Assembly: GCA_964436855.1 (NCBI GenBank)
Contig: CAYTED010000001.1
Location: 21-64,020, forward strand
Source: an uncultured Bdellovibrionales bacterium
GTDB taxonomy: Bacteria; Patescibacteriota; Minisyncoccia; Moranbacterales; UBA1568
Direction: 5' to 3'
DNA: 64,000 nucleotides
Shown here piece by piece: positions 1 to 37,479 of the stretch (positions within the stretch are counted from its first letter, which is position 1; each line of letters opens with the position of its first letter). A program made the translations under genes and the position numbers. The notes under the pieces were generated by a model. It was not told the DNA's origin. It searched no databases and saw nothing but the letters and a program-made list of their open reading frames with translations.

Positions 1-35
1 GACACAGAGTGTCCTAATTCAGAACGGAATGAATG
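1..35. repeat. Left copy of a perfect 35-bp inverted repeat (partner at 37445-37479). It contains the internal hairpin gacacAGAgtgtc and the start codons gaATGaATG.
   Basis: The reverse complement of 37445-37479 is identical to 1-35 (gacacagagtgtcctaattcagaacggaatgaatg). The repeat may extend left of the window. Confidence 0.85.
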
Positions 36-80
36 ATACCACAATAAAGCCGTTTAACAACCCAAGCCAAGGAGATCATA

Positions 81-719
81 ATGATCCGAATCGCATTCTT
101 TACCGTCCTGGTATTCTTGAGCCAGGCAGGCCAGCAAGCAATGGCCGGGGATTTCGAATTTTCTGGCTTTATCGCGGCCAAGTCCCGATATGTATTCGGG
201 AATGCCGTCGTGGCAAACGAAAAGCCCGTCATCCAGGGCGACATCTTCGTCGCCCACAAGAAATCATGCCTGCACTTCGACCTCTGGGCATCAAAAGGCC
301 TCAGGCAAAAGAAAGGCGATGAGGTCGACTACACGACTGGCTGCTCCGGAAGTCTCGGGGGGATCGACTTCAAGGCTGACCTTGCCTACTACGACTTCAT
401 CGGGAGTAGAGATGACATTCTCACTCCCATCATCGAGCTCTACCCACGCCAAGGCTGGGTAATCGGCGGGCAACACCTCCGATTAACCCAAACAAAAGCA
501 ACCGGCAAGCAACTCTATGTCGGTTATGAAAACCCCAAGTGGGGGACGAGAATCATCTACACCGACTTTTTCGGCCGAGTAACCGTGCTTAAGGCATGGT
601 ACAACTGGCCGATCGGGAAGGATGTGACGCTCTCCCTGACAGGATTCGGCGTTCTCTCCGATCCGGACAAAACCGGAAAGGAAAACCAGGTAGTGCTCGG
701 CATTCAGTACAATTTCTGA
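81..719 (+). CDS. Secreted beta-rich protein of unknown function, possibly a beta-barrel. It has an N-terminal signal peptide and a C-terminal aromatic residue.
   Basis: An AAGGAG ribosome-binding site sits 7 nt upstream. The N-terminus MIRIAFFTVLVFLSQAGQQAMA looks like a signal peptide. The sequence shows alternating hydrophobic patterning and ends in ...GIQYNF. I recognise no family. Confidence 0.45.
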   Translation: MIRIAFFTVLVFLSQAGQQAMAGDFEFSGFIAAKSRYVFGNAVVANEKPVIQGDIFVAHKKSCLHFDLWASKGLRQKKGDEVDYTTGCSGSLGGIDFKADLAYYDFIGSRDDILTPIIELYPRQGWVIGGQHLRLTQTKATGKQLYVGYENPKWGTRIIYTDFFGRVTVLKAWYNWPIGKDVTLSLTGFGVLSDPDKTGKENQVVLGIQYNF

Positions 720-928
720 CATGTCAGCACTTCTCACGCAGTCACACACGTGTGGCTGCTTTTTTTTTACCAAATATCCTCATACAAAAAACTTCGGAAG
801 AAAACACTCCGAAGCCTTTTGTACGACGAACGTAACAGGGGAGAAGAAAAGGATCTCCGAAAAAATATCTTTCCATCTCGACAAAAACTCCTGCGCGGTT
901 GTCGAAAAGAATATTCAAAAAAATTCAA

Positions 929-1567
929 CTACTCGATCTCTCGAATCATCTCCTCCTTTGGAAATCGAACTTTCGCAAACGATGCATTCTGATCTTCAGA
1001 AGATCGATACCCGACCGGAAGCAAGACAACCGAAGAAAGACCCAAGGAGTCAAGCGAAAGAATTTCATCGAATTTTTTCGAATCAAATCCCTCCATAGGG
1101 CAAGCATCAATTTCATGCATCGCAGCAGCCATCATGGCATTCCCCAAAACGATATACGCCTGACGTGCCGCCCAATCAGCAAGCGCCTCCGGTGTTCGCC
1201 CGGCAACAAAACCCTTCATCATTCCGATATACTCTTCGATCATCGATCGATCGATACCGCGAGTTTTGATCAAATCATCGACATATTCATCCACAAATGA
1301 ATCGTCGATATTTTTCTTCACGGCAAACACGATCAGATGTGACGCATCGACAACCTGTGGCTGGTTCCAAGAATGCTCCTGAAGCTTCTGTCGAATTTCC
1401 GGATTGGTTACGACGATTGCTCGCCACGGCTGCAAACCAAACGACGTCGGCGTCAATCGCATCGCATCGAGCAATACACGCATATCATCGTCACTCACTT
1501 TCTTTGACGGATCAAACTTCTTGGTGGCATATCGCCACGCAAGTGCATCGAGAAGACTTTTCTGCAT
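929..1567 (-). CDS. Nitroreductase family protein (NAD(P)H-dependent, NfsB-like).
   Basis: The 212-aa product matches the nitroreductase fold end to end (…RLTPTSFGLQPW…, …GNAMMAAAMHEIDACPMEGF…). Confidence 0.8.
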   Translation of the reverse strand: MQKSLLDALAWRYATKKFDPSKKVSDDDMRVLLDAMRLTPTSFGLQPWRAIVVTNPEIRQKLQEHSWNQPQVVDASHLIVFAVKKNIDDSFVDEYVDDLIKTRGIDRSMIEEYIGMMKGFVAGRTPEALADWAARQAYIVLGNAMMAAAMHEIDACPMEGFDSKKFDEILSLDSLGLSSVVLLPVGYRSSEDQNASFAKVRFPKEEMIREIE

Positions 1568-1656
1568 ACAAAAATTTTTATATGATTACAGAAGCTATTA
1601 TAGTGCACTTTACTTTATTTTGTAAAGTATTATACTGTATTTAAGAAAGAAATGCT

Positions 1657-1968
1657 ATGAATAAAGCAGAAAAAGAAGGCTGCTGCCCTATAGCCAAGGC
1701 ACTCGAAATCCTCGGTGGGAAGCATACATTTCTCATCATGAGAGATCTTTTGGCTGGCCCCAAACGATACGGAGAACTTCACGCTTCGATAGGGGACATC
1801 AGCACCAAAACGCTCTCCGAACGACTTGTTTTTCTTGAAGAAGAAAAAGTTATCACCAAAAAAACTTTTCAGGAAATGCCACCGCACGTAGAATACACCC
1901 TCACAAAAAAAGGCCGTGCTCTCGGACCTATCCTTGATGACCTTCGAAAGTGGGGGGCTTCTGTCTGA
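1657..1968 (+). CDS. HxlR-family winged-helix transcriptional regulator.
   Basis: The 103-aa product has CPIAKALEILGGKHTFLIMRDL…YGEL, which is typical of the HxlR/MarR-like HTH_HxlR domain. It is divergent from the nitroreductase gene, a classic pairing. Confidence 0.75.
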   Translation: MNKAEKEGCCPIAKALEILGGKHTFLIMRDLLAGPKRYGELHASIGDISTKTLSERLVFLEEEKVITKKTFQEMPPHVEYTLTKKGRALGPILDDLRKWGASV

Positions 1969-2004
1969 TCTTATATATAATCCCGGACAAAAGCTCCGGC
2001 AACA

Positions 2005-3180: not shown

Positions 3181-3392
3181 AATTTTTTGAGAAAAAAGAG
3201 GGGACTACTTCAAAGATCGGAGAGTGATCCAGACTTGCATTGTAACAAAAAAGTGGCTTTTTTAATAATCAAAAATTATGGATGACCGACATACTTCTGG
3301 AAAGAATTTTCTCCAAGAAAGGGGGAAGGAAAGCCTAAAGAACAAGGATTTCAAGGAATATAATCATCAACAAAGCATCTCCTTTCCCTCTC

Positions 3393-5813: not shown

Positions 5814-5859
5814 ATTGTATCATATTTTTATTTATGGCTTATATTAGCAATTTTTATAG

Positions 5860-6303: not shown

Positions 6304-6321
6304 GCGCCGAGAAGATATAGC

Positions 6322-6366: not shown

Positions 6367-7854
6367 TTACGAGAGCAGTGTGATCGCCTGATCAACCCGC
6401 TTCAGACTCTCGTCGCGGCCAAGCACCCACGCACAATCAAACGGGGATGGCGATTTGTCCGCGCCAGTAAGAGCAAATCGAAGCGGCCACAAAAAATCAC
6501 CACGCTTCTCCCCCGCCGCGTCCATCAATACTTTTTCCAAAACACTTTTCTCCGCCCATTCCTCATCCGAAAGTGCTGAAAGAATATCTCGCGCACGAGT
6601 AAGCGACACCTTCGTCATCTCCGCCGTATTTTCTTTCCAATTGAGTTTCTTCGGATCATACACCGGATCGGTCGCAAAGAAAAAAAGATTCTGTTCGCCG
6701 ACATCGGAGAGTTTTGCAAGTCGTTCTCGCTCGATCATAAGCACTCGCTTAAGATACTCTTCTGTCTGCATCTCCCCTGGCGCATTCCGAATGAGATCTT
6801 TTTCCAAAAACTTTCCGTCACGCATTTTTTCATACAGTTCGTCTACCGAAAGTTTCTTGATATACTCCGCATTCATCCAATCAAGTTTCTTCAAATCAAA
6901 AACTGCTCCCGCTTTATTTACTTGTGAGAGATCAAATCGCTCGATCAATTCTTCCAAAGAAAAAATTTCCCGTGTCTCCCCCTTTCCGGGATTCCACCCG
7001 AGAAGCGCGACAAAATTCAGAAGCGCTTCCTTGAGATACCCTTTTGCGAGATAGTCTTCCACTGCGACATCCCCCTGACGCTTGGAGAGCTTCGATCTGT
7101 CGGCATTGAGGAGAAGTGGCAAGTGAGCAAATTCCGGAATATCCCATCCAAACGATTCATACAAAAGAACATGCTTTGGCGTAGAAGAGAGCCATTCTTC
7201 TCCACGAATAATATGCGTTATTTGCATGAGATGATCATCAACAACGACTGCTAAGTGATAGGTTGGAAACCCATCCGATTTTAAAAGTACCTGATCATCG
7301 ACATCACGCGTATGAAATTTCACCGTCCCGCGCACGAGATCGGTGAAACAAATTTCTCGATCATCAGGAACCGCCATTCGAACCACAAAAGACTCTCCTT
7401 GCTCAAGACGCGCCTTCACTTCATCTTCTGAAAGAGAACGGCAGTGTCGATCATATTTCGGCGCTCGCTTTACTTTCATTTGTTCTGCTCGAACAGACTC
7501 CAATCGTTCAGGCGTACAAAAACAATGATACGCTTTTTTCTTTGCAAGCAATTCATCGACGTATTTCTGATATATACAGAGTCGTTGCGACTGCGTATAC
7601 GGACCATATTCGCCCTTTTCCACTACGGCGCCATTTTTAAACAATACGCCCTCATCCGGCTGAAGACCAAGCATCGCAAGCATCCGCGCAAGATTTTCTA
7701 CCGCACCATCCACAAAACGTTTCTGGTCGGTATCCTCGATACGCAGCACAAATGCTCCATGAAATTTTTTTGCAAGCAAAAAATCCGTGAGTGCCATGCG
7801 CAAGCTTCCAACATGCATAAACCCCGTCGGCGACGGCGCAAATCGGACACGCAT
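6367..7854 (-). CDS. gltX: Glutamate--tRNA ligase.
   Basis: The N-terminus MRVRFAPSPTGFMHVGSLRMAL matches the HIGH region. KLSKRQGD is the KMSKS motif. The length and the anticodon-binding C-terminus are typical. Confidence 0.9.
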   Translation of the reverse strand: MRVRFAPSPTGFMHVGSLRMALTDFLLAKKFHGAFVLRIEDTDQKRFVDGAVENLARMLAMLGLQPDEGVLFKNGAVVEKGEYGPYTQSQRLCIYQKYVDELLAKKKAYHCFCTPERLESVRAEQMKVKRAPKYDRHCRSLSEDEVKARLEQGESFVVRMAVPDDREICFTDLVRGTVKFHTRDVDDQVLLKSDGFPTYHLAVVVDDHLMQITHIIRGEEWLSSTPKHVLLYESFGWDIPEFAHLPLLLNADRSKLSKRQGDVAVEDYLAKGYLKEALLNFVALLGWNPGKGETREIFSLEELIERFDLSQVNKAGAVFDLKKLDWMNAEYIKKLSVDELYEKMRDGKFLEKDLIRNAPGEMQTEEYLKRVLMIERERLAKLSDVGEQNLFFFATDPVYDPKKLNWKENTAEMTKVSLTRARDILSALSDEEWAEKSVLEKVLMDAAGEKRGDFLWPLRFALTGADKSPSPFDCAWVLGRDESLKRVDQAITLLS

Positions 7855-7897
7855 TGTCTGTTTCCGCTCTTCCATATCCAAATCTTTTTCCGAAAAA

Positions 7898-12690: not shown

Positions 12691-14649
12691 ATGCCGAAGA
12701 AAAGAAAAAAATTATATCTCGTCTCCGTCGCGCCGGTCGTCTCACTCCCGCTCTCTCGGGATCCATTTTTCACATACTCATCGGACATCGATATTCCAAA
12801 AGGATCGCTCGTCCGTATTCCACTCGCTTCCCGCACTGTCGATGGCATCGTACTCGAATCAAAGCCACTCGTTCACAAGCCCGCTTTTCGCGTCCGACCG
12901 ATTACCGCAATTATCGAACCGTCATTTGTCGGCGACAAAACGATTGATCTTGTCCGATATATTTCCGAAATCTATTTTTCTCCGTTCGGTATTTCCATAA
13001 AGCATGCTCTGCCAAAACGCGTGAAAGAACGAAAAAAACAGATCGAAGAAAAACCCCTCACACCTCTTCCCGCACGTACTCCTTCGGAAAAAAAGCTGCT
13101 GACCACCATCAAGAAACATCCCTCCGCCTACCTAAACCCCGCAACACCGACCGAAAAAAACACCATCTTCCTCACGCTCGCACAACACACCCTCGAAAAA
13201 AAAGAACAGATCCTCTTCCTCGTTCCGGACATTATTCTCGTTTCGGAACTCGCGCTTTTTTTTGAGCGATTTTTTCCGATCCAAAGCATCGCAACTATCG
13301 AAAGCAAGCTCGGGAATGGCGCTTATTACTCGAACTGGGAACGCATCCGCTCCGGTGAAGCGAGTATCGTCATCGGCACCAGACAAGCGCTCTTCGCGCC
13401 GTTCCGGAAACTTCGAAGTATTATCTTTGATTTCGACAGTGCCGAAGGGTACAAGCAGTGGGATATGACCCCGCGATACGACGGGAAAACGGGAGCGCAA
13501 AAACTGGCGGAACTCTGGAAGGCGCATCTGCTTCTTGTTTCGCCGATACAAACGATCGAAACCCTCTTAGAAGAAGAACGCGGCAGTATACAAAAAGTTG
13601 ACGGAGGCGCATCAAAAAGAAAAACAAATCTCATTCTCTCCGATCTCAAGCTCGAACGATACAAAAAAAACTTTTCACCCTTTTCCACTCTCGTGGTCGA
13701 ATGGCTCGGCGAGACACTGCGCCGCGGCAAGCAAGCGCTCCTCATCATCAACCGACAAGGAACAAGCATTTTTTCGATCTGTGAACGCTGTCGCGAAACT
13801 TTCCGATGTCCGAAATGCGATCGGGCGCTCGTCGGATCGAAGGATGAAACCTATCGATGTCTGCATTGCTCCTACCGAACCGACGACTTCCCAAAGTGCG
13901 GGAAATGCGGCGGACTCGCCTTTCGAAATGTCGGTTTTGGAACGGAAAAAATAGAACGTGAAGTGAAAAAACTCTTTCCTCGCGCGCACACCGCTCGCAT
14001 CGACGGACCGTCTCTTCGCGCGGAAAAAAACTTCCGTTCTTTCACAAAAAAAATTACTTCCGGTGCGATTGACATCCTTATCGGTACCGAGGCGGCCCTG
14101 TATGGTCCGCGATTGCCGAAGCCTGCTCTCATTGCTATACTTGACGCAGACAATACCCTCAAATTCCCCGATTATCGAGCCGAAGAGCGTCTTCTTCGAA
14201 GCGTCTGCACCGCAAAATGGCTCGCATCGGAAGAAAGCGGGACGGTTATTTTGCAAACATTTCATTCCGAAGAACGCCATTTCCGTATCCTCTCCGAAGG
14301 AAAAGAGGAGGAGTGGGAACAAGCCATCCTAAAGGAACGAGAGGCGTTCCACTATCCTCCCGATGGTGTTTTGGTCAAACTCGAGTATCGGGAAACAAAT
14401 CTCGAACTTCTTGAAAAGGAAACGGGAAAAGCAATGAACATACTCCGTCCATCCGAAGAAAAAGAAGTGATACGATATATCGTAAGCGACCCGATCACTC
14501 CCTTTGTCTCAAAAGTCCGCGGAAAAAACATTCAAACCATTATTCTCCGTATTCCCGGAAACACACTTCCGGAATCACTCATTGAAAAAATTATTCTCCT
14601 CTCGAAACGCGGTTGGATCGTCGACCGAAATCCTCTCTCACTGACATAA
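12691..14649 (+). CDS. priA: Primosomal protein N' (PriA) homolog with degenerate helicase motifs.
   Basis: It is collinear with PriA. The Cys-rich zinc region (CERCRETFRCPKCD…CLHCS…CGKCGG), the C-terminal domain and the GTR(S/Q)ALF motif are retained. Walker A is PATPTEKN instead of GVTGSGKT. Walker B is DFDS instead of DEEH. Motif III is VSPIQ instead of GSATP. Confidence 0.8.
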   Translation: MPKKRKKLYLVSVAPVVSLPLSRDPFFTYSSDIDIPKGSLVRIPLASRTVDGIVLESKPLVHKPAFRVRPITAIIEPSFVGDKTIDLVRYISEIYFSPFGISIKHALPKRVKERKKQIEEKPLTPLPARTPSEKKLLTTIKKHPSAYLNPATPTEKNTIFLTLAQHTLEKKEQILFLVPDIILVSELALFFERFFPIQSIATIESKLGNGAYYSNWERIRSGEASIVIGTRQALFAPFRKLRSIIFDFDSAEGYKQWDMTPRYDGKTGAQKLAELWKAHLLLVSPIQTIETLLEEERGSIQKVDGGASKRKTNLILSDLKLERYKKNFSPFSTLVVEWLGETLRRGKQALLIINRQGTSIFSICERCRETFRCPKCDRALVGSKDETYRCLHCSYRTDDFPKCGKCGGLAFRNVGFGTEKIEREVKKLFPRAHTARIDGPSLRAEKNFRSFTKKITSGAIDILIGTEAALYGPRLPKPALIAILDADNTLKFPDYRAEERLLRSVCTAKWLASEESGTVILQTFHSEERHFRILSEGKEEEWEQAILKEREAFHYPPDGVLVKLEYRETNLELLEKETGKAMNILRPSEEKEVIRYIVSDPITPFVSKVRGKNIQTIILRIPGNTLPESLIEKIILLSKRGWIVDRNPLSLT

Positions 14650-14654: not shown

Positions 14655-15125
14655 ATGCACACCATTCTCACCGGACCGGAAAATGAAATCCTGAAGACAC
14701 CTTCTCAAAACGTCTCCGATCCCCTCTCCCCCGACATCCAAAAACTCATCCCCACAATGTTCGAGACAATGCACCGTGCGGACGGCATCGGTCTTGCCGC
14801 GCCGCAAATCGGTATTTCTCTCCGTCTCGCCGTTATCGAAATCGAGAACGAAAAACTCGTTCTGATCAATCCGAATATCGTCGCGAAATCCGCGGAAACA
14901 ATCGTTTTCGAAGAGGGATGTCTCTCGCTTCCGGGAGAATTTCTTCCCATTCTCCGATACGAAAAAGTAACGGTCGAATACACCGACGAAAAGGGAGTGG
15001 CGCAAAAACTCAAAGCATCCGGACTTCTTGCGATTGCCATTCAGCACGAACTCGACCATCTCGATGGCACTCTTATCGTCGATCGCTATCGCAACCAATC
15101 CGTAAAAGAACCGTATGCCCTTTAG
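14655..15125 (+). CDS. def: Peptide deformylase.
   Basis: The three PDF motifs GIGLAAPQIG, EGCLS and HELDHL are present. I chose the start at 14655 to avoid overlap with priA. Confidence 0.9.
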   Translation: MHTILTGPENEILKTPSQNVSDPLSPDIQKLIPTMFETMHRADGIGLAAPQIGISLRLAVIEIENEKLVLINPNIVAKSAETIVFEEGCLSLPGEFLPILRYEKVTVEYTDEKGVAQKLKASGLLAIAIQHELDHLDGTLIVDRYRNQSVKEPYAL

Positions 15126-27856: not shown

Positions 27857-29134
27857 ATGTCCAAGAAAACAGTTGTGGTCGTCGGGCTCGGATACGTTGG
27901 TTTGCCACTTGCGGTTCGGTCGGTTGAACGCGGATACTCCGTTATCGGATTCGATACGAACGAAGAAAAAATTTCGCTCCTCAAAAAAAAGAAGAGTCCT
28001 ATCGAAGATCTCTACCTCGAAGAGCATATTCCGAAATTTCCTTTCGAAGCGACCACTGATCCGAAAAAATTAAAACAGGCGGACATTGTCCTTATCTGCG
28101 TACCGACCCCTGTCGATGAAATGTTCTATCCCGACCTCGAGCCGGTCATTTCGGCGTCGGAACGTATCGCGAAACACCTGAAAAAAGGCGCGCTTGTCGT
28201 CCTTGAATCAACCGTGAATCCCGGTGTTTCCGAAGAAATCATTCGGCCGATTTTTGAAAAACACGGACACGTCGTCGGAACAGATGTATTCCTCGCGCAC
28301 TGTCCCGAGCGCATTAATCCGGGCGACGAGAAATGGAATGTCACGAATATCCCTCGCGTCGTCGGTTCTTTTGATAAAAAAGGACTTTCTTTGGCTCTCG
28401 AATTCTATCGCTCTATCGTCGATGGCGAAATCCGCCCAATGAAATCCATCCGCGAAGCCGAAGCGGTGAAAATCGTCGAAAATTCCTTCCGCGATATCAA
28501 TATCGCCTTCGTCAACGAACTTGCAAAGTCATTCGATGTCCTCGGTATCGACGTGAAAGACGTCATTCAGGGCGCCGCCACAAAGCCGTTCTCTTTTATG
28601 CCTCATTATCCGTCTTGCGGCGTGGGCGGCCACTGCATTCCGGTTGATCCGTATTATCTGATCGAACGCGCCAAACAATCGGGATTTGATCATAAATTTC
28701 TGAAGATCGCCCGAGAGATCAATAACTCTATGCCGGCTCACACGGTCGAACTCCTGCAAGACGAACTGAATGCGATTAAACTCCCCTTAAACGGAACGCG
28801 CATCGGCGTCCTCGGACTTGCTTACAAGGCGAATGTCGACGACCTTCGTGAGTCGCCCGCCGAAAAAATCATCGAACACCTCGAAAAACACGGCGCGAAA
28901 GTCGAGACGTTCGATCCGCATATTCTTCGACTTTCCACAACCAAATCTCTCGACGCAATCCTCGCAAAATCGGATGCACTCGTCCTTGCCACCGATCATC
29001 GCGAATTCAAAGAACGCCTCACTCCCGCCCTCCTCAAAAAATTCCGAATTCGTGTTATCGTAGATGGGAAGAACTGCCTCGACAAAAAGGCATTCCTTGC
29101 GACAAAGATTCGGTATAAGGGAATCGGGAGATAA
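27857..29134 (+). CDS. Nucleotide-sugar 6-dehydrogenase (UDP-glucose/UDP-ManNAc dehydrogenase family).
   Basis: The Rossmann motif VVVVGLGYVGLPLA and the catalytic Cys region (…AHCPERINPGD…) are present. The length is 425 aa. Confidence 0.85.
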   Translation: MSKKTVVVVGLGYVGLPLAVRSVERGYSVIGFDTNEEKISLLKKKKSPIEDLYLEEHIPKFPFEATTDPKKLKQADIVLICVPTPVDEMFYPDLEPVISASERIAKHLKKGALVVLESTVNPGVSEEIIRPIFEKHGHVVGTDVFLAHCPERINPGDEKWNVTNIPRVVGSFDKKGLSLALEFYRSIVDGEIRPMKSIREAEAVKIVENSFRDINIAFVNELAKSFDVLGIDVKDVIQGAATKPFSFMPHYPSCGVGGHCIPVDPYYLIERAKQSGFDHKFLKIAREINNSMPAHTVELLQDELNAIKLPLNGTRIGVLGLAYKANVDDLRESPAEKIIEHLEKHGAKVETFDPHILRLSTTKSLDAILAKSDALVLATDHREFKERLTPALLKKFRIRVIVDGKNCLDKKAFLATKIRYKGIGR

Positions 29135-29174
29135 GCCGCACGACAGGGAAATTTTGTTTCCTACTCCATATTCT

Positions 29175-29417
29175 ATGTTCGATCTCATCCGTTTTATCAT
29201 CTGGCTTGCGGGAGTCGCCGTGGTGGGGTATTTTCTCGCCGGATTTTTCGGATACGAAATCAATATCGACTATTTCAAAGAGCAAAAGTCAACCTGCGAA
29301 GAACACCTCCGACAGTGCCGAAAAGACCTCATTCAGTCTGGTGTCGACGGCGTCAAGGAAAAATGCGATTGGAAATGCGTCGATCCGAAGCTTCTTATTC
29401 GGAAGAGTCAAGAATAA
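29175..29417 (+). CDS. Small single-TM protein with a Cys-rich tail, hypothetical.
   Basis: The 80-aa product has one TM helix and 6 Cys in its C-terminus. It sits inside the sugar cluster. Confidence 0.3.
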   Translation: MFDLIRFIIWLAGVAVVGYFLAGFFGYEINIDYFKEQKSTCEEHLRQCRKDLIQSGVDGVKEKCDWKCVDPKLLIRKSQE

Positions 29418-29461
29418 AGAATTATGAATCAATCGACCATACGCCGTATGCTAAAATAATT

Positions 29462-29493
29462 CTGCATTTCTTGATTCCTGATTCTTAATTCTT
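29462..29493. repeat. Tandem heptamer-like repeats (tTGATTC x4) directly upstream of the GT2 start.
   Basis: The sequence is ttcttgattc-ctgattc-ttaattc-ttgattc. Confidence 0.5.
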
Positions 29494-29506
29494 GATTCAT
29501 CAACAT

Positions 29507-30457
29507 ATGAAACTCATCGTCAATATCCCGGCTTACAATGAAGAAGAAAAAATCGGCGAGACCATCAGACGAATTCCGCGATCATTTCCGGGAATCTCGG
29601 AAGTGTTGGTACAGGTAATCGACGATGGCTCGAAAGACCGGACGGTCGATGTTTCAAAAAACGCCGGCGCGGATTTCGTGTACCAAAACGGCATAAACCG
29701 CGGTATTGGAAAAACATTCCGACACGCTGTCGAACGCTCTCTCGAAAACGGCGCGGACATTATGGTCAATATCGATGCCGACGGGCAATTCAATCCGAAC
29801 GATATCGAAAAACTCATTCGCCCGATCCTCGAGCACAAGGTCGATATGGTCAGCGCCGATCGATTCACCGAATCAAGCGCGGAAAATATCCCGTGGATAA
29901 AAAATATTCTCAATCGTTTCGCCGCGCGGATCATCGGCGGATTCTTGAATACCGCTATCCCCGATCTCACCTGTGGCTTCCGCGCCTACAGCCGCGAAAC
30001 CCTGCTCCGTCTCAATCTCCCCGGCGATTTCACCTACACGCAAGAAGTCATTATCGACGCACTCGGAAAAAACCTGAAACTTTCTTTTATCCCGGTCAGC
30101 GTGACTTACTTTGCCGATCGGAAATCCCGCGTCGTCAAAAGTATCTTCGGATACTTGAACAATAGTTTCCGCATTATCCTGAAAGCCGTTCGCGATGTCC
30201 GCCCGATGAAATTCTTCGGCATCCCGGGGCTCGTCCTTATTTTTCTCTCGCTTGTTCTCTTTGCTTTCTTCCTCGGAAACTATTTCACTGACTTCAAAAT
30301 AACCCCGTACCGGAATTACCTTCTCTTTTCCGGCGGATTTTTCTTGATCGGACTTCAATTCTTCGTCTTCGCTCTTATGGCTGATATGATTAAAACCAAC
30401 CGTCGCCTGACCGAAGATCAGATGTATTTGTTTAAAAAGGAGAAATACAAAAAATAA
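29507..30457 (+). CDS. GT2 polyprenyl-phosphate sugar synthase (Dpm1/GtrB/ArnC-like) with a C-terminal membrane anchor.
   Basis: It contains VNIPAYNEE…VIDDGSKDRT…NIDADGQ and two C-terminal TM helices. Confidence 0.8.
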   Translation: MKLIVNIPAYNEEEKIGETIRRIPRSFPGISEVLVQVIDDGSKDRTVDVSKNAGADFVYQNGINRGIGKTFRHAVERSLENGADIMVNIDADGQFNPNDIEKLIRPILEHKVDMVSADRFTESSAENIPWIKNILNRFAARIIGGFLNTAIPDLTCGFRAYSRETLLRLNLPGDFTYTQEVIIDALGKNLKLSFIPVSVTYFADRKSRVVKSIFGYLNNSFRIILKAVRDVRPMKFFGIPGLVLIFLSLVLFAFFLGNYFTDFKITPYRNYLLFSGGFFLIGLQFFVFALMADMIKTNRRLTEDQMYLFKKEKYKK

Positions 30458-30466
30458 ATCTAAAAT

Positions 30467-30568
30467 TACAATTTCCAAATAAACTCCAAATCTCAATGTT
30501 TGAAATCCAAAACTTTTGATTTGTAAGTTTTGATTTAATTATTGTAATTGATTTGGGATTTGTAATTT
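30467..30568. repeat. AT-rich imperfect palindrome with an AAATC-rich left arm and a GATTT-rich right arm.
   Basis: aattacaatttccaaat… pairs with …atttgggatttgtaatt. It lies between the GT2 stop and the GT4 start. Confidence 0.45.
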
Positions 30569-30589
30569 TGAATTTGGTGCTTTAAATCT

Positions 30590-31681
30590 ATGCGAATTTT
30601 ATTCATATCAAGAGCGTACCCCCCAATAATAGGTGGGATCGAAAATCAAAACGCCGCGCTCACAAAATGGCTTGCCAAAGTGGACGGTGTTGAAATAGAA
30701 ACCATAGCAAATACGAGGGGCAAGAAATTTCTCCCGATCTTTTTTCCGAAAGCGTTTTTTCTTGCGCTCTTTCAGTTGCGCAAACACGATATCATTCTGC
30801 TTGGCGACGGCGTCATTGCGGTAATCGGCTGTTTTCTTCGTCTCTTCACCCGAAAACCGGTTGTCTCCGTTCTTCACGGACTCGATATCACCTACGATTT
30901 AAAACTCTATCAACTCCTCTGGGTGAAATGTTTCCTCCGACTTCTCTCCGGGTACATCGCCGTCTCGCGTCATACGAAAGACACCGCGATCGCACACGGT
31001 CTCCGGGAAGAAAAAATTCGCGTCGTCCCTAACGGCGTGGAAGATCCAGCCGAGCCACCAATTCAGTATCGCCGGGAAGACCTTGCTCTGTACCTTAAAG
31101 AAAATCTTACTGACAAAAAAGTTCTCGTAACAATCGGTCGAATCGTTCGACGAAAAGGCGTCGCGTGGTTTGTGGAGCGTGTCCTCCCGAAGCTCCCGGG
31201 CAATATTCTCTACCTCGTCGCAGGATCGGGATCGGGAAAAGAGAAACAGCATATTCTTGATGCCGCTACGCGAGCGAATGTCTCGCAGAAACTCCGGCTT
31301 CTCGGTTCCGTTCCGAATGAAATCAAAATTATGCTCCACCGAACAGGCGATCTTTTTATCCAACCAAATATTCTCGTCCCGGGTGATCGCGAAGGTTTCG
31401 GCATCGCCGTGATCGAAGCATCGCTCGCCGGACTTCCCGTTATCGCTTCGCAACTTGAGGGACTCGAAGACGCGGTGATCGACAAAGAAACCGGATTTTT
31501 CGCCGAACCCGGCAATCCGGAGAGTTTCGTCGCCGCTATTCTTCCGCTTCTTGAAAATAGTGTCGCGCGAAATATGTTTTCCGAAAAAGCGAAAACCGTC
31601 ACGCGGGAACGATTCCACTGGAACTCCGTTTCCAAAACCTTCGCCGCCGCTCTCGAAAGTTTTCTGCCGAAGAAATCATAA
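30590..31681 (+). CDS. Glycosyltransferase family 4.
   Basis: The product carries GDREGFGIAVIEASLAGLPVIAS and the N-terminal GG-rich UDP-sugar binding region. Confidence 0.8.
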   Translation: MRILFISRAYPPIIGGIENQNAALTKWLAKVDGVEIETIANTRGKKFLPIFFPKAFFLALFQLRKHDIILLGDGVIAVIGCFLRLFTRKPVVSVLHGLDITYDLKLYQLLWVKCFLRLLSGYIAVSRHTKDTAIAHGLREEKIRVVPNGVEDPAEPPIQYRREDLALYLKENLTDKKVLVTIGRIVRRKGVAWFVERVLPKLPGNILYLVAGSGSGKEKQHILDAATRANVSQKLRLLGSVPNEIKIMLHRTGDLFIQPNILVPGDREGFGIAVIEASLAGLPVIASQLEGLEDAVIDKETGFFAEPGNPESFVAAILPLLENSVARNMFSEKAKTVTRERFHWNSVSKTFAAALESFLPKKS

Positions 31682-31760
31682 ATATATTTCCCCCCTCTCG
31701 CCGCCCCGATCGAAACCGAAGTATCTCCATCAAATAATCGCCATAGGAACATCACATATC

Positions 31761-33740
31761 ATGACCGAATTTTTCTTCGATGCCACCTTTTTTCTTCTCG
31801 CAACCGGAGTACTCCTTTTTCTCCCGGGATGGTTTCTTATAAAACTCTTTTGCAAAAACGTTTCTTTGAACCACTGGGAATTTCTTACGCTTTCGTTTGG
31901 AATAAGCGTCGGTGTGCTTGATTTTCTCCTGATCGCGATCGGGACATTCGGTGTTCGCTACTCCGTTCACTCCATCACACTCTCCCTGTTTACGTTCGGC
32001 ATAACTGTGTTTGTCGTACAAAAAATATTCTCCGCGATTCGAAAAAATCCGAAAATGGAAAAAAATGGGCAATCTTCGCCCGTACTTCACTCGAAAAAAG
32101 AACGATTTTTGTTTCTTCTCATTCTTTTCCTCTCGATATTCGTAAAAACGATCTACCTTTCGGATGCTGCATTCCCGACTGCGACCGATCTCGGCCACCA
32201 TATGTTCTGGGCGAAGAAAATCGCCGAAACCGGCATATTCCCGGCATACGAAAAGCAAGAACTCACAGAAAATCCCGATGGATCGGTAACCCTTTCACCG
32301 TCCGAACCGATCGCCGACTTTATTATCGGTGAACATCTCCCCTTCGCTGCCATCGCGATATTTTCCGGAAACGATTTCGTCTCGGCATTTCCGGTATCAC
32401 TTCTGTTTATCGTTCATATTCTTGCACTCCTCGCCATCTTTGCGCTCGCACTACGAATCGGTGAAGATATGCACGCGCTTTTTTCATCCAATATATTTAC
32501 CCCCGGAAGATTCGCGCTCGTTATCCTCTTTCTCTCCGGCCCTCTCTACTCCCTCGCCTCCCCGCAAGCGAAATTCGTTTCAGGTGGCGTCGTCGGAAAT
32601 ACTTTCGGAAATTTTTTCATCCCGCTCATCCTCCTCATCTTCCTCCGTGCAATCCGCGAAAAAAATCCACCACTTCTCGCGATCGGATTTTTCCTCATCT
32701 TTACCCTTGCCTACACCCATCACCTCTCAACACTCGTTCTTCTCTTTATTCTCGTCGCAGTCGGTATAACGCTTCTCATTTCCCAGCGACGCCAATTGAG
32801 AAAATTTTTTCTTGATCTCTGGAACACACTCCGTCATCCCGCGCCAATAACAATCGCGATCCTGTGTATCGCCTTCTTCTTCCTCATTGCCGTCCCAACC
32901 TACCTCGAAACGAAAGGCTCGATCGATACCGCGATCGGCACTCCCACCAAACCAACCCGCACCGGACTTTCCTTTACCCAAATCGTCTTTTCAAATGGAG
33001 AGGCTCGCGTTGCGCTCGGTGCGACCGGACTTCTCTTGACGACATTTCTCCTTTTTCGCAAAAACACCGTCTCGCTCGCGCTTCTCTTCGGATGGGGCGG
33101 CATCCTTCTCCTTATGTCGCTGCGGCCGGATCTTGTGTTTCTCGATATCCCCTCCAATCGGATCGGATCATACGCGCTCTTCCCACTTTCCTTCCTCTCC
33201 GGGATCACCCTCTTCGCTCTTCTTTCTTTGTTTCGCGAGCGTTTCGGAGAAAAATTCGTCGCGACCTTTCCTCACACTCTCCTTCTCGCTTCACTTTTTC
33301 TTGTCTTTGTTTTTTCAACCGGAAGCGGTTCGTTCGACAACGGTCAAACCCTCCTCGGAAAACCGAAGGCAGAAGAAGCGGTTGAAACGTTTACCGCAAG
33401 CGCCTATCTCGCAAAACACTCTGAAGACAAAGATCTCATCCTGAAAGATCACAATTACCTCACTGCCGATACCTGGATGAAACTTTTTTTTCTTCGTGAT
33501 TACAACTTCCCGCTCTCTCGGTCTTATTTCGGTCGCTACGAAACTCCCGGACGCGAACAATGCACACTCCAAATGATCTCTATCCCAAATACAGCCGAAG
33601 GAAAACGCTGTTTCGAGACATCGGGAGTCAATATTATTGTCGTGCACCCGCTCTACGATCGCTCCCAATTCGAAAAATCAAACAATTTCTCCCGCATCTA
33701 CTCATCAAACGATATCCATATTTATGAAAAAAGTTTTTGA
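31761..33740 (+). CDS. Large polytopic membrane protein, putatively a GT-C-type glycosyltransferase.
   Basis: It has about 12-14 TM helices and a C-terminal soluble domain. I chose the internal ATG at 31761, after the GT4 stop. Confidence 0.4.
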   Translation: MTEFFFDATFFLLATGVLLFLPGWFLIKLFCKNVSLNHWEFLTLSFGISVGVLDFLLIAIGTFGVRYSVHSITLSLFTFGITVFVVQKIFSAIRKNPKMEKNGQSSPVLHSKKERFLFLLILFLSIFVKTIYLSDAAFPTATDLGHHMFWAKKIAETGIFPAYEKQELTENPDGSVTLSPSEPIADFIIGEHLPFAAIAIFSGNDFVSAFPVSLLFIVHILALLAIFALALRIGEDMHALFSSNIFTPGRFALVILFLSGPLYSLASPQAKFVSGGVVGNTFGNFFIPLILLIFLRAIREKNPPLLAIGFFLIFTLAYTHHLSTLVLLFILVAVGITLLISQRRQLRKFFLDLWNTLRHPAPITIAILCIAFFFLIAVPTYLETKGSIDTAIGTPTKPTRTGLSFTQIVFSNGEARVALGATGLLLTTFLLFRKNTVSLALLFGWGGILLLMSLRPDLVFLDIPSNRIGSYALFPLSFLSGITLFALLSLFRERFGEKFVATFPHTLLLASLFLVFVFSTGSGSFDNGQTLLGKPKAEEAVETFTASAYLAKHSEDKDLILKDHNYLTADTWMKLFFLRDYNFPLSRSYFGRYETPGREQCTLQMISIPNTAEGKRCFETSGVNIIVVHPLYDRSQFEKSNNFSRIYSSNDIHIYEKSF

Positions 33741-34101
33741 AATCCTGATTTCCGACACCGGAACCATCCTTATTTCCCTTGTGTGCGGAGCGATATCGGT
33801 ATACGCGCTTTTTTTCATCGTCGGGACGGAGCTTGATCCAAATCGTAACAAAAACTGGTGGTCGCTCGCATTTGAAAGTCGCTCGCTTGAAACAAACAAT
33901 TTTATCATCGAAAATCATTCCGATTCCGATATGTTCCGATACGAAGTCATCACCGATGGGAAAACCGTGGCCGCGGATACGCTTCATATTGCAAACGGGG
34001 AAGAGAAAACAATCTCAATCGATACGACAGACGCAAAAACAATCGAGATTACCGCAACCGATCACACCGGAAAAAAACAAAGTATTTATCGAAAAAAATA
34101 A
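33724..34101 (+). CDS. Small N-terminally anchored protein, hypothetical.
   Basis: The 125-aa product has one TM helix followed by a beta-rich domain. Confidence 0.3.
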   Translation: MKKVFEILISDTGTILISLVCGAISVYALFFIVGTELDPNRNKNWWSLAFESRSLETNNFIIENHSDSDMFRYEVITDGKTVAADTLHIANGEEKTISIDTTDAKTIEITATDHTGKKQSIYRKK

Positions 34102-34110
34102 CAGAAAAAT

Positions 34111-35244
34111 ATGCCCGACCACACCGGAAAAAAAATCCTCCTCGCGACACGCGCGCTTGTTCCTCCGTGGGACGAGGCCTCCAAAAACTTCGCCTACTTT
34201 CTCGCGAAATCGCTTACCAAACACCACACGACTATTCTCACTACGCCTACGTGGCTCCCCGATCTCCCGGCCAATGTCACGCAGTTCCCCTGCTACACGA
34301 AGAGCGAGCTTGATTTCCTCGAAAAAATCCGCCTCCTGCGCGCGCTTCGAAATCTTCGCGGAAAATTCGATATCACACACTACCTCTTCACGCCAACCCG
34401 AAAAAACACTTCCCTCATCAACTTCTTTAGCCGTCCAACCCGTGGAAAAACCATTCAAACCGTCGCCACGCTTCGTGAAGATCTTTATAACCCAAAACAA
34501 TTGAAAGAACTCCTCTTCGCCGATCGGATCGTCGTCTATTCCGATCATTCAAAACATCGCCTCGAAAAAATCGGGTTCAATAATGTCTCACGCATTTATC
34601 CGGGTGTTGATTTGTCGTTTTATCAGCCGCAATCAAAAAGTGCCGATACTCTCTCGCACTTCAATCTTTCAAAAGATGATTTTATCGTGTCTTACAATGG
34701 CGAATACGCGCGTTTGGGCGCAACCGATATGCTTGCCGATTGGCTCATTGAACACTACACCAATCACCCTGATTCAAATATGAAATTTGTTTTCGCTCTC
34801 CGCGTAAAAAAGCACGAGGATGATCGCATTAAAAAAGAAGAAATCACTCAACGCTTCGAGCAAGCAGGGATTTTGAAGCACATCCGCTTTACCGATACCT
34901 ATGCCGATATGCCAAAACTCTACAATCTTGCCGACGTGATTCTTTTTCCCGTAAATGATATGCGCGGAAAGTTTGATATACCACTCGTTGTCATCGAAGC
35001 GTATGCCTGCGGAAAACCCGTTATTCTCTCCGATCTCCCTATCTTTTCTGAATTTTCAAATCCGGATATCTGTGTTAGCATTCCGCGAGGTGATACCCGG
35101 TCGCTTACCGAAAAATTGGCTTATTTAAAAGAAAATATGCAAGAACGCGAGCGGCTCGGCCGAAACGCGCGCGCTTTCGTGGAACAACATTTCGACCTCA
35201 AAAAAACCGTCAGCGAATACGAAGCCCTCTACACTTCCCTTTAA
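34111..35244 (+). CDS. Glycosyltransferase family 4.
   Basis: The product carries …FPVNDMRGKFDIPLVVIEAYACGKPVILSD…. Confidence 0.8.
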   Translation: MPDHTGKKILLATRALVPPWDEASKNFAYFLAKSLTKHHTTILTTPTWLPDLPANVTQFPCYTKSELDFLEKIRLLRALRNLRGKFDITHYLFTPTRKNTSLINFFSRPTRGKTIQTVATLREDLYNPKQLKELLFADRIVVYSDHSKHRLEKIGFNNVSRIYPGVDLSFYQPQSKSADTLSHFNLSKDDFIVSYNGEYARLGATDMLADWLIEHYTNHPDSNMKFVFALRVKKHEDDRIKKEEITQRFEQAGILKHIRFTDTYADMPKLYNLADVILFPVNDMRGKFDIPLVVIEAYACGKPVILSDLPIFSEFSNPDICVSIPRGDTRSLTEKLAYLKENMQERERLGRNARAFVEQHFDLKKTVSEYEALYTSL

Positions 35245-35335
35245 TTTCTAATTTCGAATTCTGAATTTCGATTGAATTTTTAATCATTAAATTTTGAAAC
35301 ATTGATTCGAAATTCGAAACTCGGAATTCAAAATT
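35243..35335. repeat. AT-rich spacer full of TTCGAA/GAATTC-containing short repeats (aatttcgaat, cgaaattcgaaa).
   Basis: It contains several direct and inverted copies of (a)aatttcgaa(t). Confidence 0.4.
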
Positions 35336-35349
35336 ATTCCCACACCATT

Positions 35350-36855
35350 ATGAATCATTTCCAGTTCAATAAAATTTCAGATTATAAGTCCGAGCTCAAA
35401 ACAGAAAAGATGAAAGTCCCGATTGTTTTTCATGTTCAAGACGAGCTTCTCCCAAATGAATCCACCCTTCTCCAACTTGAAAGTGTCGCCAGCAATCAAG
35501 AAGTATTTCATCACATCGCCGCGATGGCTGATGTTCACTCGAAGCCCGGACGAAAAAACGCCACCGGAACCACGGTCGTTTCCGAAAAATACATTCTCCC
35601 GCAACTCAACGACTCCGATCCTGCGTGCGGAATGCGTCTCGTGAAGACCAATCTCAACGAAAACAATATCTCAAAAGCTGATCTCGAGAAACTCTTCGAA
35701 GCACTTGTTCCGAAAGTTCCCACCAAGGCATATATTGGAACCTACCTTCCATTCCGCATCATCGTCGACATTTGCAGACTTGGAATTCAACCCCTCATCG
35801 ATCACCTCGGCATCAAGACAAAATACGAAAAAGAAAACTCCCTCGATCGCGGAAACTTTTTCGACCAAGCTCCATCATCAAAGGATATTCAAAACATCAT
35901 TCCTCCACTCTTCCTCTTCTTCGCACAATTCCGATCAGGCATTCTCGGTGCCGCCGGCAACCACTTTCTCGATCTTATGAAGGTAACTGGCATCGAGGAC
36001 GAAGAAACAGCGCAAAAACTCGGCATAAAAAACGGCGATTACGTTTTTATGATTCATTGCGGATCCGGAATCCTCGGTCAATACACGATGTATATGTACA
36101 CCGCCAAGAAACGCGAACACATTTCCACGGCCATCCTTATGAATATCGGTCGCTTCTTCTGGAACACACCATTCAAGAAAACCGTAAATCGTATCGCACA
36201 AAAAATCCGCGAGTCCGATTTCGGAAAAAAAGAACCCCTCATCGCATTTGACGGAAATGACGAGGACGGAAGACTCTATATGGAAGCGCGCAAAGCCTGC
36301 TCCAATTTCGCCCACGCAAACCGAGCCGTCATCGCGCACAATGTCGCCGCCACCGCCAAGGAAGTCCTCGGTCGCGATATCCAAATGGAACTCCTCTACG
36401 ACATGCCACACATCCTCGTCTCACAGGAAGAACACTTTGGAAAAAATGTTTGGGTACACCGCAATGGCACGAGCCGTGCCTATGGTCCATCGAAAATGTC
36501 TGATCACCCTCTCTTTCGCGAAACCGGGGAACCGGCATTCATCCCAACCTCGATGAGTACCGAGGCCTACCTCTGCGTCGGTACGGATGACAACGATTCC
36601 AGCTTCTTCTCCTGCAATCACGGCGCCGGAAAGTCCGCCAAAAAAACAGAAGATATTATTCCTGAAAACAAACAAGAGCTCGACAAAAAACTCCAGTCGA
36701 AAGGCGTGAAGCTCTATAATGGTCGCTCAAGCAAGGTCATCGAACAGGACTCCTCGCATTACAAGCGCTCGGACGATGTCATCGCCAGCGTGAAAGAAAA
36801 CCACATCGTCAAACCCGTCGCCAAAATGCAACCCGTCGCGATTATTATGTACTAG
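35350..36855 (+). CDS. rtcB: RtcB-family RNA ligase (divergent).
   Basis: MKVPIVFHVQDELL aligns with the archaeal MRVPGRVYADEVLL. HIAAMADVHSKPG aligns with HIAVMPDVHLGKG. CGMRL aligns with CGM. The C-terminal NHGAGK is the NHAGAGR-like motif. Confidence 0.7.
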   Translation: MNHFQFNKISDYKSELKTEKMKVPIVFHVQDELLPNESTLLQLESVASNQEVFHHIAAMADVHSKPGRKNATGTTVVSEKYILPQLNDSDPACGMRLVKTNLNENNISKADLEKLFEALVPKVPTKAYIGTYLPFRIIVDICRLGIQPLIDHLGIKTKYEKENSLDRGNFFDQAPSSKDIQNIIPPLFLFFAQFRSGILGAAGNHFLDLMKVTGIEDEETAQKLGIKNGDYVFMIHCGSGILGQYTMYMYTAKKREHISTAILMNIGRFFWNTPFKKTVNRIAQKIRESDFGKKEPLIAFDGNDEDGRLYMEARKACSNFAHANRAVIAHNVAATAKEVLGRDIQMELLYDMPHILVSQEEHFGKNVWVHRNGTSRAYGPSKMSDHPLFRETGEPAFIPTSMSTEAYLCVGTDDNDSSFFSCNHGAGKSAKKTEDIIPENKQELDKKLQSKGVKLYNGRSSKVIEQDSSHYKRSDDVIASVKENHIVKPVAKMQPVAIIMY

Positions 36856-36905
36856 TGTCAGCTAACAATCAGCAAACAACAGTAAACAAAAGAGATAAAA
36901 AAAGG

Positions 36906-36938
36906 CCGCTTCGTCATATTGACCAAAGCGGTTTTTTT
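36906..36938. terminator. Bidirectional intrinsic terminator (ccgctt…aagcgg plus TTTTTTT, preceded by AAAAAAA).
   Basis: It lies between the convergent rtcB and the 36965..37447 ORF. Confidence 0.55.
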
Positions 36939-36964
36939 GTTAATCCAAGCTGAACCCAAGCGAC

Positions 36965-37447
36965 TCACTCGAGGCCGAGGAAGATGCGCATCATCTCGGG
37001 CGAAAGCGTGCCTTTGCTTTTTTCTGCAAGCTCAAGAAGCGCACTGAGTTGCCCTTCGTTCAGAGGACGTTGAGCGGTCTCTTCGCTCAAAAAAAACTCA
37101 ATGACCGGTCGATACCTACGATCAAGCAGCAAGGGCGCCAGCGAATGATAATCGCTCTGCGCGCCAAGCAGGAATTTTCTTAAACTGGCCACTTGATTGG
37201 GATGTGGAATATTCTTCCCACCCGTCCAGCGATCAATCGTTGCCCGACTTGCAATATCTGAACGAACAACATCCATCTTGGTTTTTCCAGCAGCCTCAAT
37301 AACTGCCGACAGCAACCGACCCATCTCTTTTTTCTGCGCAGGGTCAGTACGAGCTAAATCCACCGCTCGCTTAAACTGCTCAAACGCTTCTTTCGCGTCC
37401 ATTGCTATCTCCTCATAAAAGCTGTTATTGGGAAAAAACCGTCGCAT
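36965..37447 (-). CDS. Hypothetical protein, possibly with an HTH. Its start codon lies inside the right copy of the 35-bp inverted repeat.
   Basis: A 160-aa ORF with no family recognised. The ATG at 37447 is the second ATG of the repeat. Confidence 0.3.
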   Translation of the reverse strand: MRRFFPNNSFYEEIAMDAKEAFEQFKRAVDLARTDPAQKKEMGRLLSAVIEAAGKTKMDVVRSDIASRATIDRWTGGKNIPHPNQVASLRKFLLGAQSDYHSLAPLLLDRRYRPVIEFFLSEETAQRPLNEGQLSALLELAEKSKGTLSPEMMRIFLGLE

Positions 37448-37479
37448 TCATTCCGTTCTGAATTAGGACACTCTGTGTC
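37445..37479. repeat. Right copy of the perfect 35-bp inverted repeat (partner at 1-35).
   Basis: Verified as an exact reverse complement of 1-35. Confidence 0.85.

Follow-up and report, generated by a model that had tools for sequence, protein, structure and literature searches.

A perfect inverted repeat in a Moranbacteria contig as probable debris of an IS30-family insertion sequence

Introduction

The closest described counterparts of the sequence reported here are IS30 of Escherichia coli and the other members of the IS30 family (such as ISApl1 and ISAba125), whose one transposase combines HTH_38 at the N-terminus with a DDE core; these elements are bounded by imperfect terminal inverted repeats of about 27 nt, measure about 1.05 kb, and occur in many copies at unrelated sites. 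A 2-bp target duplication and a preference for hot spots or for the inverted repeats themselves (IR-targeting) are features of E. coli IS30. The element moves by a copy-out-paste-in route through an IRL-IRR junction and inserts next to its own ends; truncated copies also occur, E. coli K-12 itself carrying an incomplete IS30 (PMC9333248).

Other arrangements bear comparison with a repeat of this kind: solo IS ends left by illegitimate deletion, MITEs, and composite transposons or IS-flanked invertible segments. We describe here an inverted repeat that very probably belongs to an IS30-family element of Candidatus Moranbacteria, a lineage of CPR bacteria; the host thus differs from that of E. 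coli IS30, and the end sequences are unrelated to those of the E. coli element.

Results

An inverted pair of repeats

The window is the whole stretch of DNA that was analysed, 64,000 nt in length. Its first 35 bases, GACACAGAGTGTCCTAATTCAGAACGGAATGAATG (1-35, + strand), are the exact reverse complement of 37445-37479 (- strand), just as a sequence-only reading of this DNA had claimed. The pair is real: with up to 3 mismatches allowed, these are the only two matches to the 35-mer in the whole window, none was found in 100 dinucleotide-preserving shuffles of the window, and no such pair is expected by chance. The core GTGTCCTAATT is also present in the window only in the two copies, and the palindromic elements near the right copy are unrelated to the repeat. 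That the repeat measures 35 nt is an effect of the window edge: at the right copy, IS-derived sequence continues to 37491, a total of 47 nt. The features that enter the argument are these:

1..35, + strand: left copy, probably the outermost 35 nt of an IRL; terminus at base 35, cut by the window edge
81..719, + strand: 212-aa gene with a signal-peptide-like N-terminus, 45 nt past the left IS tip
36965..37402, - strand: conserved 145-aa gene; true start ATG 37402 behind GAGGAG
37445..37491, - strand: right copy, probably a solo IRL end, TACTGGCACTCTGACACAGAGTGTCCTAATTCAGAACGGAATGAATG, 47 nt; terminus 37445 faces the 145-aa gene
37466..37486, - strand: hairpin GGCACTCTG-ACA-CAGAGTGTC, just inside the IS tip
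37496..37524, - strand: sigma-70-like promoter of the 145-aa gene (promoter scan): TTGACG, 17 nt, TATTAT
37513..38898, - strand: gene for an O-antigen-ligase-like Wzy_C protein, upstream of the right copy; an anchor for the conserved gene order

Between the copies lie gltX (6367-7881), priA (12691-14649) and fmt (15115-16107), in agreement with the earlier statement that the 37.4-kb segment holds essential genes and is itself no transposon. The 212-aa gene does start at 81, at the previously noted distance of 45 nt from the left copy. ORF starts had also been placed within the repeat; mechanically this is correct, in that a 160-aa ORF (36965..37447) begins at the second ATG of the right copy and a 97-aa ORF (29..322) at the first ATG of the left copy, but both starts are spurious. 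The latter ORF overlaps the 212-aa gene out of frame. As for the former, we take ATG 37402 as the real start because the deposited NCBI protein (P0001, 100% identical) has 145 aa and its homologues, encoded in the same Wzy_C / RtcB neighbourhood, have 146-153 aa. The 145-aa protein has no match in Pfam or NCBIfam; the 212-aa protein is weakly similar to Gcw_chp/TorF porin-like proteins, and is not related to a 210-aa protein beside the syntenic locus of the relative L002.

The repeat as the end of an IS30-family element

At each of 14 other public loci, the last ~30 nt of the repeat, which do not vary, make up the outer tip of an element. Nine of these 14 loci are in genome contigs, every one of them a Candidatus Moranbacteria MAG; a 22-mer matches 9 genome contigs, all from Moranbacteria MAGs, a 23-mer of the repeat core matches two JGI metagenome contigs, and four MAGs contain at least two copies each. 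The exact 35-mer had no match in public genome contigs, and a 19-mer had none in viral contigs. Homology ends sharply at the tips: in an alignment of the left copy with 12 public IRL tips, the flanks part right after GAATG; the flanks differ directly past ...GAATGAATG in every copy, and the 15 distinct flanks beyond this string place the copies at unrelated sites. On the outer side of the public loci, ...AGAGTGTCCTAATTCAGAACGGAATGAATG is followed by unrelated flanks; inward lies CAT, the start of a transposase gene on the opposite strand.

That transposase has 322-328 aa and starts ~47 nt inward of the tip. The criteria for an IS30-family transposase were scored on two related copies outside the window, L012 and L013, whose proteins inward of the end reach 206 and 196 bits, respectively, on NF033563 "IS30 family transposase" (cutoff 80) and also match Pfam HTH_38. 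Complete copies are laid out in the order IRL tip (CATTCATTCCGTTCTGAATTAGGACAC), hairpin of 8-9 bp, ATG of a transposase with HTH and DDE domains, and an IRR that ends in ...GTGTCCTAATTGAGGGGTGAATTAAGG. The IRR, CCTTAATTCACCCCTCAATTAGGACAC, has the 11-nt core AATTAGGACAC in common with the IRL and is like it at ~19 of 27 positions, so that the element has imperfect terminal inverted repeats of about 27 nt at both ends. From tip to tip L012 measures ~1048 bp, and two stand-alone contigs in Logan assemblies (L025, 1054 bp; L026, 1049 bp) carry one 324-aa ORF each. Furthermore, the majority of 3273 homologous transposases (E<=1e-40) are on contigs of ~1.0-1.3 kb, which is typical of a collapsed multi-copy repeat.

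Inspection by eye of the flanks of L012, L024 and L027 gave no unambiguous target duplication, the exact IRR tip being uncertain by 1-2 nt. At L024, an IRR-like fragment, AGGGTGAATTTAAG, is found 5-7 nt outside the copy's own IRL tip, a hint of insertion beside its own ends. No complete IS with the hairpin-loop variant of the window, CTGACACAG, was recovered; P0014 and P0012 carry other loop variants. Other orphan IRL ends are seen at L021 (~50 nt) and L014 (~110 nt).

With high confidence, then, we assign both copies to the transposase-proximal end (IRL) of an IS30-family IS of ~1.05 kb, the right copy being an orphan and the left one cut by the edge. The element is widespread in Candidatus Moranbacteria and joins a known family, and the perfect repeat is thereby ordinary. 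The sequence-only reading had named a generic repeat as one possible outcome, and in this form it has come about, as an IS end that recurs in many genomes; the IS itself was missing from the candidate identities offered. Neither the window nor the surroundings of the L021 remnant contain a tRNA gene, and an attachment-site or tRNA-related origin was accordingly rejected. The same goes for a promoter reading outward from within the IRL, where inspection by eye showed no more than a -35-like CTGACA/TTGACA and nothing convincing as a -10.

The right copy in the leader of the 145-aa gene

A blastn HSP at 37444-37491 aligns the right copy to the IS end of L013 with 93.8% identity; base 37444 of this HSP matches the L013 flank, outside the IS, where the remnant ends on its inner side is certain only to within ~5 nt, since IS and native leader alike are T-rich there. 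None of the seven orthologous loci compared has the 47-nt stretch, although they keep the promoter and the leader, and on this comparison of loci the right copy is an insertion. Its place is the 145-aa gene's 5' leader, where it is 42 nt upstream of the start codon, between the conserved promoter and the ribosome-binding site, and begins 5 nt downstream of the -10 hexamer; TTGACG and its spacing are conserved in 7 relatives. A tblastn comparison of two transposases with the window found no transposase (best E=0.3), and a search of the window for the IRR, allowing up to 3 mismatches, found none. The window thus holds no complete autonomous copy, lacking both the transposase and a second end, and the right copy has the make-up of a solo IS end: one terminus, a site that is empty in relatives, and the rest missing.

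Both junctions are reproduced in an independent assembly (Logan, run SRR12229868). The inner one is in contig L028, where the junction of native promoter and IS interior is identical to the window down to 37462; the outer one is in L023, which begins at 37472 and is 100% identical over 8984 nt. The last 31-mer of L028 starts at 37492, one base beyond the predicted remnant boundary, a stop that is expected if another copy continues differently at this point (CAT... in the complete IS). The 160-aa ORF also stands as a gene call in Logan.

The 5' leader of the 145-aa gene was once occupied by an IS, its IRL facing the gene. We infer that ~1 kb was deleted afterwards, comprising the IRR, the transposase gene and ~10 nt of the native leader; what stayed behind would be the 47 nt of tip plus hairpin that now separate the native promoter from the ribosome-binding site.

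The hairpin deserves separate mention. The small gacac-aga-gtgtc hairpin described earlier does exist, but only in this variant; the conserved structure is the larger GGCACTCTG-ACA-CAGAGTGTC, of which the left copy retains only the loop and the 3' arm. It stands 3-4 nt from the transposase start codon in complete copies, and in the window the minimum-free-energy fold of the 94-nt leader (MFE of -23 kcal/mol for the entire leader) has it as its first helix. The stem is paired in 99% of cells across 14 copies and the loop is variable; the changes in the stem are one-sided only, with no compensatory pair in which both sides had changed. Searched with Rfam at gathering thresholds, the whole window gave no match. 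A riboswitch or other structured leader RNA was rejected on these two grounds.

These data also bear on the proposal, put forward earlier as a duplicated leader or operator, that one regulator or RNA structure governs both downstream genes through the repeat, which would act as a common operator or 5' leader, perhaps as an exapted IS end. Both copies are 42-45 nt before a co-oriented start codon, and at several other loci the IRL tip is 20-120 nt before a co-oriented ORF (judged at the level of ORFs, with three loci ambiguous); such closeness to gene starts is nevertheless expected of any intergenic insertion in a compact genome. The right copy is in a transcribed leader directly behind a conserved promoter, to which it adds a stable 5' hairpin, yet the orthologous promoters in 7 relatives work without this stretch, the hairpin has neither an Rfam match nor compensatory changes, and the same sequence tips transposase-bearing elements at unrelated sites. 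Since the right copy is an insertion missing from all seven orthologous loci, we consider shared control of the two genes highly improbable, and keep to the reading of an IS end.

No fixed inversion at the right junction

It had also been suggested that the copies are the crossover sites of a large inversion, to which may be added a 37.4-kb segment that is still flipping by way of its inverted IS ends. The copies are indeed perfect and inverted, and their 35-47 bp of identity come close to the shortest length on which homologous recombination can act; the two isomers, moreover, look alike in assembly graphs at k=31. Transposition of IS30 can in itself generate inversions (PMC9333248). Against these points, the order Polysacc_synt, Tmk, Wzy_C, 145-aa gene, RtcB and glycosyltransferases is collinear with the relatives L001 and L002 over ~16 kb across the right copy (window ~29.5 to 45.4 kb), and the GC skew stays below zero in all 1-kb bins, without a switch of sign at 37.4 kb. 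Collinear gene order and unchanged skew rule out a completed inversion at the right junction; judged by gene order, the deposited junction is ancestral. We therefore rate inversion, past or continuing, as very unlikely: the opposite orientation of the copies simply reflects two insertions made in opposite directions. An inverted isomer would join TATATTATTCTTTACTGGCAC...GAATG to ATACCAC, and the Wzy_C promoter-remnant to ATACCACAAT. By analogy, the pair could offer a short match of 35-47 bp to rare events of homologous inversion.

The left copy and the window edge

Base 1 of the window is most likely a contig end, since 6 of the 11 other public copies found in pattern scans are within 140 nt of a contig end; the earlier suspicion of an edge effect at the left copy is in this way borne out. 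Among the best 120 transposase clusters, none is on a contig as long as the source contig (203,564 bp). At the left junction, GGAATGAATG is followed by ATACCACAAT, the flank of the 212-aa gene (junction-spanning string, GGAATGAATGATACCACAAT). An IS, probably complete, would be directly left of base 1, its transposase reading away from the window; the sequence there would run ...TACTGGCACTCT into a transposase gene or its remnant, and the left copy could itself be a remnant. The window would then start where the assembler broke off its contig, 35 nt into a multi-copy repeat, and a ~1.05-kb high-coverage contig beginning ...CATACTGGCACTCTGACACAGAGTGTCC would be expected.

A pure assembly artefact would read the same edge differently, with the first 35 bases as a wrongly attached k-mer overhang from the right locus and no IS beside the 212-aa gene. 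It would suit a left copy whose first base is the first of the window; breaks at this sequence are routine in assemblies of the IS, and the left junction is seen in no independent assembly. De Bruijn contigs, however, are made of read k-mers, hence the junction of GAATGAATG with ATACC should be supported by reads. The right copy, for its part, lies well inside the contig and is borne out by independent Logan contigs, and the points at which the Logan unitigs end call for one or more additional copies that continue differently on the inward side. We regard such an artefact as extremely improbable, and prefer an IS end at both positions.

Discussion

Set beside the known systems, the right copy most resembles a solo IS end from illegitimate deletion, having one terminus, neither transposase nor partner, and a site that is empty in relatives; it differs in being only 47 nt long and in ending almost at the transposase start codon, with the tip-plus-hairpin whole. 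It shares with MITEs the character of a small, non-autonomous, IS-derived intergenic sequence, whereas a MITE has two terminal inverted repeats and can be mobilised; the right copy is a single end with no IRR-like sequence nearby. The pair brackets a long segment with two inverted IS ends, as do composite transposons and IS-flanked invertible segments, yet both tips point inward, the right copy is without an outer end or a transposase, and the 37.4 kb hold gltX, priA and fmt, with ancestral order at the right junction. We know of no named ISfinder entry for this IS30 lineage of Moranbacteria.

A functional role can be sketched. The IS may preferentially insert, or persist, with its IRL tip 20-120 nt before a co-oriented gene; the ~47-50-nt tip-plus-hairpin would then survive transposase loss time and again, as at the right copy and L021, through exaptation as a 5' leader that stabilises or tunes the mRNA, and the pair may permit a rare 37.4-kb flip at the level of the population. 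We think this candidate reading improbable. By analogy with IR-targeting, the orphan end could also be a preferred target for new IS30-type insertions.

The finding overturns nothing and opens no long-standing question. Its value is chiefly that of housekeeping: a conspicuous perfect repeat is accounted for as debris of a mobile element, a contig boundary is probably located, and the start of the 160-aa ORF inside the repeat is shown to be spurious. It also documents, in the small CPR genomes of the Moranbacteria, an abundant and apparently active IS30-type element that breaks up the assemblies of these genomes and deposits orphan ends in leaders close to promoters, which is of use in the curation of MAGs and in studies of CPR genome plasticity.

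Identity of the repeat

The 35-mer GACACAGAGTGTCCTAATTCAGAACGGAATGAATG occurs at positions 1–35 on the forward strand and, reverse-complemented, at 37445–37479; sequence matching thus confirms the exact inverted pair described in the sequence-only reading, as well as the placement of its left copy 45 nt before the start of the 212-aa gene (81–719, + strand) and of gltX, priA and fmt between the two copies. It is the sole long perfect long-range repeat of the window, in which no third match was found at ≤3 mismatches; dinucleotide-preserving shuffles gave no match either (0 in n = 100).

In public data, the 23-nt core of the repeat matches two JGI metagenome contigs, and its 22-nt tip matches nine genome contigs, all nine from Candidatus Moranbacteria/Moraniibacteriota MAGs. 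In every case, the sequence after ...AGAGTGTCCTAATTCAGAACGGAATGAATG is unrelated from locus to locus; the inward side carries a short hairpin followed by CAT, at which an opposite-strand gene starts (product 322–328 aa, HTH_38). The adjoining proteins score 206 and 196 bits against NCBIfam NF033563 ‘IS30 family transposase’ (cutoff, 80 bits). At the far end of the element lies a related inverted repeat, ...GTGTCCTAATTGAGGGGTGAATTAAGG, with the core AATTAGGACAC common to both ends; the element is ~1.05 kb tip to tip, and stand-alone Logan contigs are 1049–1054 bp. Transposase homologues number 3273 at E ≤ 1e-40, mostly on contigs of 1.0–1.3 kb, the signature of a multi-copy repeat collapsed by assemblers. 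The element agrees with the IS30 family in transposase profile, in its terminal repeats, in size and in being multi-copy. The 35-mer is therefore the outer part of the transposase-proximal (IRL) end of such an insertion sequence (IS).

An orphan end at the right copy

The window contains one cut-off end and one orphan end of this IS only: the core GTGTCCTAATT occurs just in the two copies, the opposite end (IRR) was not found in the window, and neither was a transposase (best tblastn E = 0.3). From its tip at 37445 to 37491, the right copy resembles an IS end (TACTGGCACTCT... versus CATACTGACACTCT... in complete copies).

Features of the right copy
37445–37491, − strand: orphan IRL end, 47 nt, stopping approximately at the expected place of the transposase start codon
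37486–37466, − strand: conserved hairpin GGCACTCTG-ACA-CAGAGTGTC, first helix of the leader's predicted fold

Across 14 copies the conserved hairpin is paired in 99% of cells and its loop varies; the changes are one-sided G·U only, and so give no proof of covariation. The small hairpin noticed previously is present here but is peculiar to the window's loop variant, and differs from the conserved one. Two further orphan IRL ends lie mid-contig in one Moranbacteria MAG, L021:4196–4247 (~50 nt) and L014:3356–3467 (~110 nt, including 23 codons); the former, like the remnant in the window, reaches just as far as the transposase start codon.

Three other classes were rejected: a MITE, which has two ends whereas the remnant has one; a composite transposon, given the inward-facing tips and the lack of an outer end at the right copy, which upholds the earlier view that the intervening segment is not a transposon; and a known RNA element, no match to known RNA families being present in the window.

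The right copy as an insertion

The 145-aa gene downstream of the right copy (36965–37402, − strand) is conserved: its deposited NCBI protein (P0001) is 100% identical at 145 aa, and homologues have 146–153 aa. Mechanical ORFs that start inside the repeat do exist (29–322 and 36965–37447), but the real start of this gene is ATG 37402, behind GAGGAG. In public assemblies, relatives keep the order Polysacc_synt, Tmk, Wzy_C, 145-aa gene, RtcB, glycosyltransferases. In an alignment of the window with seven relatives over the Wzy_C-to-145-aa-gene intergenic region, a promoter (TTGACGGAAT, 17 nt, TAT..T), also found by a promoter scan of the window, and a leader (GTTTTTT.CCAAT...GAGGAGAT) are conserved in all of them. 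Only the window has ~40 extra bases, the repeat included, separating the leader from the −10 hexamer. Their absence from all seven relatives shows that the right copy is a lineage-specific insertion; a conserved regulatory site was therefore rejected, and the proposal of a duplicated leader or operator under one regulator is unlikely. Without the remnant, the window's leader is ~10 nt shorter than those counted in the seven relatives, which would fit deletion of the IS body plus a little native DNA.

Logan contigs of run SRR12229868 match the window exactly. One (L023) agrees with 37472..28489 at 100% identity (8984 nt), its first base lying 28 nt in from the IS tip; on another (L028), Wzy_C and the promoter are followed by the junction TTCTTT/ACTGGCACTCTGACACAGAGTGTCCTAAT, and the contig stops at 37462. 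The passage from promoter to IS interior by which the orphan end is recognised is thereby reproduced, and so was not created by the deposited assembly. For contigs built at k = 31, the final 31-mer of L028 would begin at 37492, just one base beyond the expected limit of the remnant; such an endpoint would imply that a further copy exists in the sample in which another base precedes TACTGG..., as is the case for a complete IS (CATACTG...). The start of L023 comes two bases later than expected from a simple branch between a left and a right copy, which suggests either a third IS-tip copy in the sample, its flank likewise opening with CG, or a polymorphism at 37442.

Gene order and neighbouring elements

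The gene-order comparison proposed in the sequence-only reading shows collinearity across the right copy (~29.5–45.4 kb) with two relatives carrying the syntenic locus (L001, L002), and GC skew is negative in 64 of 64 bins. On both counts the deposited arrangement is ancestral at the right junction, where the idea of crossover sites of a large inversion finds no support. Inversions are a known outcome of IS30 activity, and new insertions are drawn to IS30 ends (PMC9333248); an inverted isomer of the 37.4-kb segment could still occur as a rare form.

Palindromes in the window
38171–38263, 38658–38693, 39569–39592, 39962–40000, 52873–52908, 63595–63630: small palindromic elements rich in G+C (families D1, D6 and D9)
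41490–41660: large imperfect palindrome just after Polysacc_synt, 83-nt arms, 72% complementary, 5-nt spacer

The palindromic elements near the right copy had been taken to suggest a recombination-prone neighbourhood; the D1, D6 and D9 sequences bear no relation to the IS end. Inside the Wzy_C CDS, two such elements encode ...LGRGQGEV...PLERGGG... in place of the relatives' loop and resemble in-frame palindromic-element insertions.

The left copy and the context of IRL ends

The left copy is cut by the window edge, and its ‘35 nt’ is thus an edge effect. To this extent the suggested contig-end artefact holds; the contig end itself is judged from public copies, six of 11 others found by pattern scans lying ≤140 nt from a contig end (L013, L015, L016, L019, L020, L022). 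Among the best 120 transposase clusters, none lies on a contig that reaches the 203,564 bp of the source contig. On the simplest reading, the contig probably ends at base 1, within a complete IS that has its body further left. The 212-aa gene, at this probable contig edge, has no recognisable promoter between IS tip and start codon. A search of 5.8 billion proteins gave no close relative of its product, and the best match in a representative library is only 35% identical; the distant family of this protein matches Gcw_chp/TorF, a putative outer-membrane porin, an odd match for a CPR bacterium, since that group is generally taken to have no outer membrane.

Beyond the IRL tip, a co-oriented ORF preceded by a Shine-Dalgarno-like motif usually begins within 20–120 nt, as at L012, L015, L016, L019, L020, L022, L024 and L027 and in the window (36–80, 37403–37444); at ORF level, the transposase is thus divergent from the neighbouring gene. 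The picture is ambiguous in L017, L018 and L021, and at L014 the tip points to the 3′ end of a gene. A target preference or selection could underlie this pattern, as could simply how short the intergenic regions are in such genomes. Near one complete IS copy (L024:~300–330), an IRR-like fragment, AGGGTGAATTTAAG, is found 5–7 nt beyond the IRL tip, reminiscent of IS30-type insertion next to the element's own ends (IRL-IRR junction).

The repeat pair is an ordinary mobile-element footprint; it is the host group that is unusual.
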